In this document: piece by piece, positions 41,300-44,300 of the stretch
Position numbering within the stretch: the stretch's first letter is position 1
Layout of the letters: each line of letters starts with the position of its first letter
NCBI GenBank assembly: GCA_000004695.1
Contig: CM000154.2
Coordinates: forward strand, 1,024,001-1,088,000
Source: Dictyostelium discoideum
Lineage: Eukaryota
Length of the DNA stretch: 64,000 bases
Reading direction: 5' to 3'
Notes under the pieces: model-generated
The model's database searches: none
What the model was told of the DNA's origin: nothing
The model's input: the letters and a program-made list of their open reading frames with translations, nothing else
Position numbers and translations under genes: made by a program

Positions 41300-44200
41300 T
41301 TTGAGAGATCTTAATCAAAAATATTTATCTTTGATATCTTTCATCAAACGAGACTCAATGGAACATATAGCAGTTGGTAATTGTTGTTGAATTGATTTGA
41401 TTATTTCCAATCATTCTAAATTTGGTTGAATCTATCAATAACAAAATTAAAGATCAATGGATATTATTATTAATATTTTTTTATTTTTATTATTTTTATT
41501 ATTATTATTATTACTATTATTATTATTATTATTATTATTATTATTATTATTATTATTATTACTATTATTATTATTATTAGTAATACCTTGTGGAATATCT
41601 TTAAATAAATCACGAGTATTACCAGAATAAAGACTATAGAGTGTTTTTAATGGTGAACCAGTTGGTAATGAGGAATTTGCATTGTACGGCCATAAACTTC
41701 AGCACCTAATTGATGAGCTAAAACTAAAGCATGAAACCATAACTCATTATCCAAAGCAAATTGATGAGCAGCAATCATATCACCTTGAGTCATTAAAGAT
41801 TGAACTCTATTCAATAGTTAACCAAAATCAGCATCGGATCTACCAATATTCTTTTGAGTTGGTTGGAATAAAGTTGGTGTAGTTTTTTTATTATTATTAT
41901 TATTATTATTATTATTATTATTATTATTATTATTATTATTATTATTATTATTATTATTATTATTATTATTATTATTATTATTATTATTATTGTTATTATT
42001 ATTATTATTATTATTATTAATTGGCATCATACCTTGTTGTTGTTGTTGTTGTGGTGGGCCGTTAAACATTGAATTACCACCATTATATCCTTGATAATTA
42101 TTATTATTATTGTGGTTATTATTAAATTGATCATTTGGTGAAATTGGGAAATGATTTGAAAAATCTGATAATGAATGATTTCTAATAACTTGATTACCAC
42201 CAAATTGTGATGGTTGTTGATATTGAATGGTGGGATTTGTTGATTAGATGATGACATTCGAATTGATGGTGATCCACTACCAACATTATTATTAAAGAAT
42301 GGAATAGCTCCATTGCTACCATCCAATGATGTATTATTATTATTATTATTATTATTTTGTTGTGGTGGTGGTAGTATGTGAGGTTGTGGTTGATTTTGTG
42401 GTGGTGCGTGGTTGGGTTGATGTTGTTGTGGTGGTGGTGTGTGTGATTGTGATGGTGCCATATTTGAATAACTATGATGTTGATGTTGATGTTGATGTTG
42501 ATGTTGATGTTGATGTTGATGTTGATGTTGATGTTGATGTGTTGGATTAGGTGTTCCAACGCGTGGTGATCCTTGAGCTACACGTTGATCCTTGTGATGG
42601 ACTATGAGAAAATGTTGGAATGATCATTTGTGGTGGACTATTAATAACTGGAATCATTTGTGGTGCTTGTTGGTTATTATTGTTATTGTCAGATGATGGC
42701 ACACTACTACTACTTTTACCAACACTACCACTATTATTTGAAGTAACTGGAGTAGGTGGAATACCAACCAGATGGTGAGTTACTAAATGGAATGATTGGT
42801 GGAGCTGGTTTGGTTGAGAAGTTGATGAAACAGGGTTTGTAGATATATGCTATTATTTACATTATCATCTGAGCTAAAGAATGAAGATATCTCCTTTTCC
42901 TTCTCCCCACTATTACTATTACTATTATTATTATCGCTATCGCTATTGCCATTGCTATTGCTATTGCTATTGCTATTGCTATTGCTATTGCTATTGCTAT
43001 TGCTATTGCTATTGCTATTGCTATTGCTATTGCTATTGCTATTGCTATTGCTATTGCTATTGCTATTGCTATTTATATTATACTTGATACACGATCCAAT
43101 AAAAGTTTATTTGAATCTAAATTCAAAATTGCTCTAATTAAAATATCATCAGATGGTAATTTACCACACATTACAATGATTGCATTTGATCTCTTTTGTG
43201 ATAGAACACTAATAACTTTTTGAATTGGTTTCGATTTAACTGGTCCACCACCAATTGATGTTTCACTACCAACAACTGGCGATGTAATAGTTTCATTCTT
43301 TTTGAAGGGGTAATTGGTGATTTTGTTGGTTGTAATTTATATTTAACTGGTTCTTCTTGATTACTACTTGCAACATTTAATGATAATTCATGAATTTCAT
43401 TTTCATTTGATTTTTCACCTTTAACAATTGTTGATAAATCTTTAATTGTACAATTATTATTTTTAATTGTATTATTATAAATTGAATTATTATTTATATT
43501 ATTTGTATTTTTTGTATTTTTTGTATTATTTGTATTATTTGTATTATTTGTATTATTATTTAAAGTATTTGAAATTGTAATTGGTGATAATAAACAAGAT
43601 AAATTTGGTTTTGGCGTTGATTTTTTATTTGATTGCTATTGTTGTTGTTGTTGTTGTTGTTGTTGTTGTTGTTGTTGTTGTTGTTGTTGTTGTTGTTGTT
43701 GTTGTTGTTATTGTTGAGTTTGTTTTTTGTTGAGTTAATATCTTTTTAAACTTTCTTCAATTTCAGGAGTTGATAAAAATTCAGATCAATTCCCAATTTT
43801 GTTTATTTGAATTATTACGAGCATAATTGAAGAAATGATTACAAAGTGCAGCAGCTGTACCCTTGAAAGTTTAATTGGAGTTTAAGGTAGCTTTCTTATT
43901 TATTCTTTATTGATCTTTTGATGGTGATGAGGGTGTTGGATTATCAGAAGTTGATGATAAATCAGAATCAACTTTGTTGCTATTATTATTATTATTATTA
44001 TTATTATTATTATTATTATTATTATTATTATTATTATTATTATTATTATTATTATTATTATTATTATTAGCACCAACAATTGGTACTTGTCTATTACTAC
44101 CACCTAAAATCTTGAAACCTTTTGTAAAGATTGAAGGAATATATGAATCTGATGTTGATAATTTATTATTTGATGGGAATGATGTAATTCTCTCTGCAAA

Positions 44201-44300
44201 TGTATCTAATTGATTCAAATAAAAAATGATCTACTCTAAAAACGAAACCCTTTTCAAAGAATGATAATTGTTGAACACCACCACTGCTACAATCAAAACC
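41300..44300 (-). pseudogene. Sec16-like (ER-exit-site scaffold, ACE1/central conserved domain) gene carrying an in-frame TAA and at least 5 frameshifts
   Basis: MTQGDMIAAHQFALDNELWFHALVLAHQLGAEVYGRTMQ...ANSSLPTGSPLKTLYSLYSGNTRDLFKDIP matches the Sec16 CCD (GLWGHALLLAS...HARVMTRFANSLP.NDPLQT.YQLMSGR). Coding-like N/Q/S/T-rich segments switch frame at homopolymers (42237, 41700, 43290, 43800). Native-like AT-rich codon usage. Confidence 0.45.
42930..43075. repeat. (GCTATT)n hexanucleotide array; encodes (NS)n on the minus strand inside the Sec16-like locus
   Basis: Perfect hexamer repeats. Confidence 0.9.

Follow-up and report, generated by a model that had tools for sequence, protein, structure and literature searches.

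A rearranged mosaic of Sec16, formin and ependymin-like gene fragments in the Dictyostelium discoideum genome

Sec16 is a scaffold of the COPII coat, represented in Pfam by the Sec16 mid-region (PF12932) and the TPR_Sec16 domain (PF12931). An intact Sec16 of 1992 aa has been reported in D. discoideum (XP_646771.1; PMC4419792 supplement). Pseudogenes are also known in Dictyostelium, where they are usually masked by gene callers (PMC1420674). The duplicated (non-processed) kinase pseudogenes of this organism (Goldberg et al., 2006, PMC1420674) are like the locus described here in having frameshifts and nonsense codons in conserved regions, an apparent origin by DNA duplication, and gene models that hide the lesions by means of introns or truncated ORFs. 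Our analysis covered a window of 64,000 nucleotides of D. discoideum DNA (contig CM000154.2, positions 1,024,001 to 1,088,000), and indicated that the locus at 41300-44300 of this window is a rearranged pseudogene mosaic of the ordinary kind, not one damaged Sec16 gene. It has at least three parent genes (encoding Sec16, a formin and an ependymin-like protein) and is adjoined by a truncated copy of an importin-alpha gene. We infer, with a probability of about 0.82, that duplicated pieces of genes are clustered, without function, on the minus strand from 44637 to 39204 (Table 1). They lie between a 631-aa gene (35598-37493) and another gene that starts at 45064.

Table 1. Features of the mosaic and of the adjoining importin-alpha copy, in minus-strand order. 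Residue numbers are those of D. purpureum Sec16.
Feature	Coordinates	Strand	Evidence
5' fragment of an amoebozoan ependymin-like gene (PF25544 family): T-rich upstream sequence, decayed signal peptide, codons ~21-93	44241..44637	-	78% aa identity to protein P0001
Sec16 C-block part 1, end of TPR/ACE1 domain (residues 1467-1519)	44063..44228	-	tblastn 64-67% identity, E=6e-18; blastn 78% to L004 14464-14603
(AAT)n tract, encoding poly-Asn if read in frame with the pieces on either side	43981..44069	-	TRF period 3, 29.7 copies, 100% matches
Sec16 C-block part 2 (residues 1602-1627), TAA end at 43909-43907	43907..43984	-	Smith-Waterman z=3.1, 0/100 shuffles reach score; collinear with part 1
Stop-containing, coding-like sequence spread over several frames; (CAA)n at 43639-43716, 9-nt repeat at 43488-43557	43300..43906	-	TRF tracts
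Formin FH2-domain fragment, profile positions ~65-117/372	43076..43300	-	83% aa identity to protein P0003; Pfam FH2 E=6.8e-4 (below cutoff)
(AGCAAT)n hexamer array, then AGCGAT/AGTAAT units	42932..43073	-	TRF; alignment, common to L003
Sec16 N-terminal 'EKEISSFF' motif region (residues 221-252), start of N-to-mid block	42786..42920	-	Smith-Waterman z=4.5, 0/100 shuffles
Pro/Gln/His-rich low complexity, shifting frames, including (CATCAA)11 at 42475-42540	42327..42785	-	flanked by two collinear Sec16 pieces
Sec16 pieces (residues 947-967, 984-1003), frameshift between	42133..42326	-	tblastn 57% and 67% identity
Low complexity and (AAT)44 at expected place of beta-blade (PF12932; residues 1068-1177)	41887..42132	-	246 nt vs ~600 nt expected; TRF 41888-42019
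Start of Sec16 TPR/Sec23-binding domain (residues 1204-1272), in-frame TAA 41820-41818	41680..41886	-	tblastn 57%, E=1e-28; PF12931 positions 1-78/298; blastn 73% to L004
Further Sec16 TPR (residues 1276-1304), out of frame after 10-nt deletion; end of Sec16 homology	41594..41680	-	tblastn 83% identity
(AAT)n tract closing the Sec16 block	41462..41593	-	TRF 41462-41579
Segment 'X' (IIKSIQQQLPTAICSIE...), common to L003 composite	41318..41410	-	85% over 81 nt to L003; matches P0003 C-terminus
(CATTAACA)13 array; L003 has a shorter homologous array after X	41148..41251	.	TRF; alignment
Importin-alpha-like ARM copy without IBB domain and first ARM repeats, frameshift near 40650	39204..41000	-	two overlapping ORFs, different frames

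The homology to Sec16 that the earlier note had recognised is borne out. On the minus strand, TPR_Sec16 (PF12931) is matched at 51.6 bits (cutoff 22), and D. purpureum Sec16 matches the window by tblastn with E=1e-28, at 57% identity for the first TPR piece (41817-41680, NELWFHALVLAHQLGAEVYGRTMQ) and 83% for the second (41680-41594, ANSSLPTGSPLKTLYSLYSGNTRDLF); a phmmer search of 1.84 billion proteins with a 56-aa exact in-window translation gave E=2e-11. Our reference was the D. purpureum protein XP_003288899 (UniRef F0ZNB0), encoded by locus L004, and the identities of 73-78% for DNA and 57-83% for protein are thus distances to this species rather than to the D. discoideum parent. Only about half of the mosaic can be traced to Sec16, and this half consists of two minus-strand blocks in permuted order, with the C-terminal block (44228-43907; D. 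purpureum residues 1467-1627) upstream of the N-to-mid block (42920-41594; residues 221-1304). Within the latter, the stretch 42785-42327 aligns to Sec16 no better than shuffles do (Smith-Waterman) and gave no Pfam match; its position alone makes it a probable remnant of Sec16's disordered N-terminal half.

Much of the conserved part of the protein, some 300 codons, is missing. Residues 1004-1203 of D. purpureum Sec16 correspond to just 246 nt of low complexity and (AAT)44, and the mid-region/beta-blade profile PF12932 found no match in any frame segment of the locus, while D. purpureum Sec16 was positive with the same tool. PF12931 is covered at positions 1-78 of 298 only, leaving about three quarters of the TPR/Sec23-binding domain unaccounted for: nothing corresponds to residues 1305-1466, ~160 in all, and the residues that lie beyond them (1467-1519) are out of place, 2.4 kb upstream. 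No continuous ORF and no ATG-initiated frame was found for the Sec16-derived sequence. With no beta-blade, and with a Sec23-binding TPR domain that is cut down to roughly one quarter and broken even there, no working Sec16 can be encoded here. As regards an origin as a retrocopy, the only intron of D. purpureum Sec16, at residues ~1407-1446, falls within the missing part, and a poly(A) remnant would be uninformative because A-rich tracts occur throughout the genome.

The stop codon that had been noted inside the domain is present, as a TAA in frame between conserved residues (ADFG*LLNR). Frame switches had been described at four places along the locus; those near 41680 and at 42263-42196 do lie inside Sec16-derived sequence, and those near 43290 (here seen near 43300) and 43800 are in or beside sequence of other origin (the formin FH2 fragment and 43300-43906). 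Further changes of frame occur near 42600, 42850 and 44230, the last being the junction between fragments of two different genes. At 41680, comparison with the D. purpureum protein shows a loss of 10 nt (the HSPs overlap by 1 base where 9 nt would be expected between them), and the interval 42263-42196 holds 68 nt where 48 are expected, a net change of +2. Neither site contains a homopolymer of 4 nt or more, contrary to the suggestion that the switches were mostly at homopolymers. Introns were considered as a source of the frame switches in the TPR piece and rejected, since the overlap of the HSPs leaves no room for one and the TAA stands amid conserved residues.

The Sec16 blocks are separated and flanked by the formin FH2 fragment, the ependymin-like 5' fragment and ~600 nt of other sequence (43906-43300), which has no Pfam match and no significant alignment to Sec16. 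The ependymin-like fragment corresponds at 44447-44241 to residues ~21-93 of P0001, a protein that matches PF25544 at 197.5 bits, and its signal-peptide region has degenerated into (AAAT)n at 44442-44524. An intact single-exon paralogue is present in a D. discoideum strain (L002 5868-6258; blastn 74% over 411 nt). In its core, the fragment shares 93% identity with L006, a second copy in D. discoideum, 87% with L005 of D. cf. discoideum and 85% with the intact paralogue. Compared with amoebozoan ependymin-like proteins, it has no start codon and keeps the N-terminus ahead of the domain together with roughly 40 of the 171 positions of PF25544, those at the beginning of the profile. Its junction with Sec16 at ~44241-44222 may contain 8-11 nt of AT-only microhomology when D. 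purpureum is taken as the Sec16 reference. The FH2 match of the window fragment taken alone is below the Pfam cutoff, but over 152 nt its core has 92.8% identity with locus L003, where the copy is longer and scores 59.2 bits for FH2 (cutoff 34.8). Of the formin FH2 domain (PF02181), the fragment covers ~50 of 372 positions, again with no start codon. For the adjoining importin-alpha-like copy, residues 6-300 of a repaired translation align to importin-alpha 187-466 of 528 with E=2e-41, and the Pfam Arm profile gives E=4.7e-14. Disabling mutations in recognisable parental sequence are found for Sec16, importin-alpha and the ependymin-like fragment.

From the identities, order and lesions of the pieces, their agreement between two assemblies (see below) and the reappearance of sub-blocks at further loci, we infer a mechanism and a direction of events. 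DNA-level duplication and ectopic or end-joining rearrangement would have gathered the fragments, and erosion would have followed through point mutations such as the TAA, small indels such as the 10-nt deletion, and larger deletions or expansions at simple-sequence tracts such as (AAT)n and (AGCAAT)n. All assignable fragments have a single orientation, which random assembly does not predict and which, for about four fragments, counts weakly against it.

The alternative that survives best, while still unlikely, is that a single Sec16 paralogue or retrocopy has decayed in place, accumulating a stop codon and frameshifts. The blocks are indeed genuinely derived from Sec16 and bear such lesions, and the pieces within each block are collinear with D. 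purpureum Sec16. This does not, however, account for a C-terminal block lying 5' of the N-to-mid block on the same strand, for the FH2 fragment and other non-Sec16 sequence between them, or for a 5' end made of an ependymin-like fragment; moreover, the FH2-(AGCAAT)n-X composite is present without Sec16 at L003. The view of the earlier note that the 3-kb span is one Sec16-like gene was not confirmed. Its proposal of a decaying paralogue holds to the extent that the Sec16-derived sequence is dead and an intact gene has been reported (XP_646771.1; PMC4419792), but what decayed is a mosaic and not one gene.

Parts of the mosaic are found again, differing in their deletions, at unrelated loci of D. 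discoideum and of D. cf. discoideum. The FH2 sequence of L003 is 210 nt longer than that of the window, and a Sec16 block is lacking there; in L005 and L006 the ependymin-like fragment is truncated just as it is in the window. It is conceivable, if rather doubtful, that the mosaic is one copy of an unrecognised Dictyostelium class of composite repeats whose members would take up pieces of host genes (Sec16, formin, ependymin-like, importin-alpha), rearrange them and spread them in one orientation, through capture or template switching, possibly in connection with DIRS-rich regions. A shade less probable is a mobile or repeatedly copied composite element with captured host gene fragments, whether similar to Pack-MULE or Helitron captures or arising from template switching by reverse transcriptase. 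The recurrence in two taxa with internal junctions in common, the position of L005 amid DIRS-like RT/integrase genes and the shared orientation of all assignable fragments would fit such an element, but the window copy is not bounded by terminal inverted repeats or long terminal repeats, and neither transposase nor RT was found within it or beside it. Between 38500 and 46000 the repeats are of simple sequence only, with no transposon hallmarks, and no RNA families were found at the locus. The three other loci seen (L003, L005 and L006) each share a different subset with the window and have different ends, none of which coincide, and no target-site duplication was identified.

A gene caller has produced models of 161, 504 and 102 aa from this locus, in addition to a 481-aa importin-like model. 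These models, together with a coding-like GC content of ~30% and the transcription known for some Dictyostelium pseudogenes (PMC1420674), could be read as signs of one or more real, expressed chimeric genes with new small proteins, or of a regulatory pseudogene RNA (e.g. in antisense or small-RNA control of Sec16). The ependymin-like fragment may also bring upstream promoter sequence with it, weakly suggested by a match to the intact paralogue upstream of the ATG that is T-rich and of low complexity. We consider expression of this kind very unlikely: the models require several introns in coding-like sequence, a known artefact pattern (PMC1420674), none of them keeps a complete domain, and the paralogous copies decay differently, which argues against constraint. 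The expectation that the locus would affect neighbouring annotation has thus proved right, in the form of the three small models. The locus is an annotation trap, whose spurious small genes could mislead comparative work on the COPII coat by passing for a second Sec16, a formin or novel proteins. It has no bearing on Sec16 function, since an intact gene has been reported elsewhere (XP_646771.1).

The lesions themselves are real and not sequencing artefacts. A second D. discoideum assembly (GCA_054883475.1) is identical over 34242-44551 of the window, with 0 mismatches and none of the 8 indels falling there, and the importin-alpha-like copy is likewise identical in it. As there are no substitutions between them, the two assemblies probably represent one strain lineage, and their agreement would not be fully independent if the newer were reference-guided. 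Seven ORFs in the neighbourhood, 602-1806 aa long, are uninterrupted even with 56 homopolymer runs of at least 6 nt. The earlier alternative of an error-prone assembly, with an intact gene obscured by mistakes of sequencing or assembly, is hardly credible. In its favour, AT content is extremely high in this genome, homopolymers and triplet tracts abound, and the two assemblies do differ at such tracts elsewhere. Here, however, they agree fully, the checkable frameshifts are free of homopolymers of 4 nt or more, and the TAA stems from a substitution; ~300 codons of conserved domain are gone, the order is permuted, long ORFs nearby are intact, and decayed features are common to paralogous copies in other strains and species.

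The mosaic can be compared with several known systems. It is like Sec16 genes in 5-7 collinear stretches of 57-83% aa identity to D. purpureum Sec16, including the first 78 PF12931 positions, the last ~25 TPR/Sec23-binding residues and the N-terminal EKEISSFF motif, but it differs from them in having no beta-blade, no start codon, permuted blocks, an in-frame stop, at least two frameshifts and no synteny between its position and that of D. purpureum Sec16; it derives from Sec16 but is not a Sec16 gene. Pack-MULEs, Helitron captures and products of retroelement template switching similarly juxtapose fragments of unrelated host genes, in one orientation and at several loci, but no terminal repeats, element-encoded protein or common ends were found that would support membership of these classes. 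As a rearranged pseudogene mosaic, the locus offers a compact example of how gene fragments have been joined in the AT-rich Dictyostelium genome and would afterwards have worn down where triplets and hexamers are repeated; other loci hold partial copies. The kinase pseudogenes (PMC1420674) are copies of a single parent and keep the parental exon order, whereas here at least three unrelated parents have contributed, and the pieces of one of them are out of order.

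The Sec16 homology pointed out in the earlier note is genuine: the peptides are present in a three-frame translation of the minus strand, on which the feature lies, and the TPR_Sec16 domain (PF12931) scores 51.6 bits in Pfam, where the cutoff is 22. When the exact 56-aa translation of 41817-41650 was compared exhaustively with 1.84 billion proteins by phmmer, it matched dictyostelid Sec16 proteins, namely those of Dictyostelium purpureum (XP_003288899; UniRef F0ZNB0; 1854 aa, 64% identical) and of Heterostelium album (1678 aa), the naming of which was confirmed by cluster look-up, and the D. 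purpureum protein matched the window by tblastn with E=1e-28. Such a signal is far stronger than expected by chance. The window has ~20% GC and abundant AAT/CAA triplet tracts, and the proteins most similar to it are those of D. discoideum. The three-frame translation also contains the in-frame TAA described before (41820-41818, ADFG*LLNR), and its reading frame changes repeatedly.

The locus is not, however, one Sec16 gene. The idea of a single damaged gene holds in that Sec16-derived sequence with lesions is present, but this sequence falls into two blocks, mapped by tblastn and Smith-Waterman alignment with shuffles, and is accompanied by fragments of other genes. Its order is permuted, since the C-terminal block precedes the N-to-mid block on the minus strand. 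Translation of this strand revealed no start codon at the locus. Residues 1305-1466 of the TPR domain (D. purpureum numbering, Dp) are entirely missing, and the only intron of D. purpureum Sec16, at residues ~1407-1446, lies inside the missing part, so that intron content says nothing for or against a retrocopy origin. In D. purpureum Sec16 a beta-blade domain (PF12932) is detected at Dp 1068-1177; the locus lacks it and has 246 nt of low-complexity sequence including (AAT)44 at this position.

Gene-derived segments of the locus, in minus-strand order
Segment	Dp Sec16 residues	Window coordinates	Strand
Ependymin-like fragment		44637-44241	minus
Sec16 C-terminal block	1467-1519	44221-44063	minus
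Sec16 C-terminal block	1602-1627	43984-43912	minus
Formin FH2 fragment		43300-43076	minus
Sec16 N-to-mid block	221-252	42920-42786	minus
Sec16 N-to-mid block	947-967	42326-42264	minus
Sec16 N-to-mid block	984-1003	42195-42133	minus
Sec16 N-to-mid block	1204-1272	41886-41680	minus
Sec16 N-to-mid block	1276-1304	41680-41594	minus
Importin-alpha-like ARM ORFs		41000-39204	minus

At its 5' end, the supposed gene shows homology to an ependymin-like gene of amoebozoans, with 78% protein identity to an ependymin-like protein (P0001; PF25544, 197.5 bits) and 74% DNA identity over 411 nt to an intact single-exon paralogue; in the signal-peptide region of this fragment, the sequence has decayed to (AAAT)n. 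The formin fragment, alone under the Pfam cutoff (E=6.8e-4), shares 92.8% DNA identity with a D. cf. discoideum copy (L003) that is longer and whose translation yields FH2 at 59.2 bits. Neither Pfam nor alignment to Sec16 assigned a parent to the ~600 nt at 43906-43300.

Parts of this mosaic recur elsewhere. The ependymin-like fragment is found at a second D. discoideum locus (L006; GCA_054859385.1; 93% identity) and in D. cf. discoideum (L005; 87%), there on a contig rich in DIRS; the two copies share the N-terminal decay as well as the 3' extension, and both diverge exactly at the point where Sec16 sequence starts in the window, a junction with possible AT-only microhomology of 8-11 nt. At the D. 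discoideum locus, the decayed (AAAT/GAAT)-rich signal-peptide region is tandemly duplicated (L006 9880-10080, ~110 nt). On the D. cf. discoideum contig (JBTAPI010000033.1; L005 ~11640-12700), a stretch with GC much above that of Dictyostelium DNA directly follows the ependymin-like fragment and a Thr/Ser-rich repeat and adjoins DIRS-like RT/integrase genes; a transposon, foreign DNA and contamination are all conceivable sources. The D. cf. discoideum locus with the longer FH2 copy has neighbours unrelated to those of the window and is collinear with it through FH2, (AGCAAT)n, a common segment (41410-41318) and GTTAATG-type repeats; it is without the 1.45-kb Sec16 N-to-mid block and keeps ~210 nt of FH2 absent from the window. 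On the simplest reading, these copies would descend from one composite ancestor and have since undergone different deletions between simple-sequence tracts. That the locus is mobile as a composite element is a minor possibility; no terminal repeats, transposase, tRNA or Rfam family is associated with the window copy.

The ARM ORFs downstream of the mosaic share its orientation. Their alignment to importin-alpha begins only at ~residue 187 of 528, the IBB domain and the first ARM repeats being absent, and a frameshift near 40650, which splits the copy into two ORFs (40581-41000 and 39770-40684), has to be repaired for the alignment. Because of this 5' truncation and frameshift, the sequence is another truncated dead copy; a second assembly has the identical sequence, with a gene model of 481 aa. 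The mosaic and the importin-like copy are separated by an octamer array, (CATTAACA)13 (41148-41251), and a homologous but shorter array of the GTTAATG type follows the common segment at the FH2-bearing D. cf. discoideum locus (L003 ~8865-8905). The motif GTCGCCGGTTCGATTCTGTG (~41033-41052, plus strand) resembles a tRNA T-arm/B-box and may be a tRNA-gene remnant or extra B box; ARAGORN found no tRNA anywhere in the window. Elsewhere, a minus-strand ORF at 3443-4060 has PPCQPFT... and ENV motifs and resembles by eye a portion of a DNMT2-type cytosine methyltransferase, the D. discoideum homologue of which is dnmA; if this identity holds, the ORF would serve as a landmark to place the window in the genome.

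We consider, with a probability of roughly 0.8, that the locus is a relic without protein-coding function, the fragments of which were joined by DNA-level duplication and rearrangement and then decayed. Duplication and rearrangement would first have juxtaposed the gene fragments, and substitution, small indels and tract-mediated deletion and expansion would then have eroded them. Transcription of the locus, or a role as a regulatory RNA, is a minor possibility. The window locus is not the ancestral Sec16 position, since none of the genes flanking D. purpureum Sec16 (DOCK, AD-domain, short-chain dehydrogenase and topoisomerase II genes) is present in the window. In supplementary file 3 of the COPII survey by Schlacht and Dacks (PMC4419792), one D. 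discoideum Sec16 is listed (XP_646771.1, 1992 aa).

The proposal that this part of the assembly is error-prone did not hold up. Contig CM142511.1 (5.29 Mb) of assembly GCA_054883475.1 has 0 mismatches to the window over 21.9 kb and differs only by 8 indels, all at long homopolymers or one AAT tract; as no indel or mismatch falls between 34242 and 44551, every lesion is reproduced. The absence of substitutions suggests that both assemblies probably represent one strain lineage, and the newer one is possibly not reference-independent. Seven other ORFs in the window (602-1806 aa) are intact despite containing 56 A/T runs of 6 nt or more. The frame switches had been placed mostly at homopolymers, yet the two that are measurable against a reference, a 10-nt deletion at 41680 and a net +2 within 42263-42196, lack any homopolymer of 4 nt or more. 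An assembly artefact is thus rejected on the agreement of the second assembly, the intact long ORFs and the position of the measurable frameshifts.

The expected effect on annotation is evident: spurious models of 161, 504 and 102 aa have been made from the locus, and these, together with the 481-aa importin-like model, should carry a pseudogene-fragment flag. The multi-parent, permuted structure is a curiosity and does not define a novel type of feature. D. discoideum has documented duplicated pseudogenes that carry frameshifts and stops, which automated gene models hide by adding spurious introns or truncating the ORFs (Goldberg et al., 2006; PMC1420674), and the lesions at the window locus are likewise masked by automated models.
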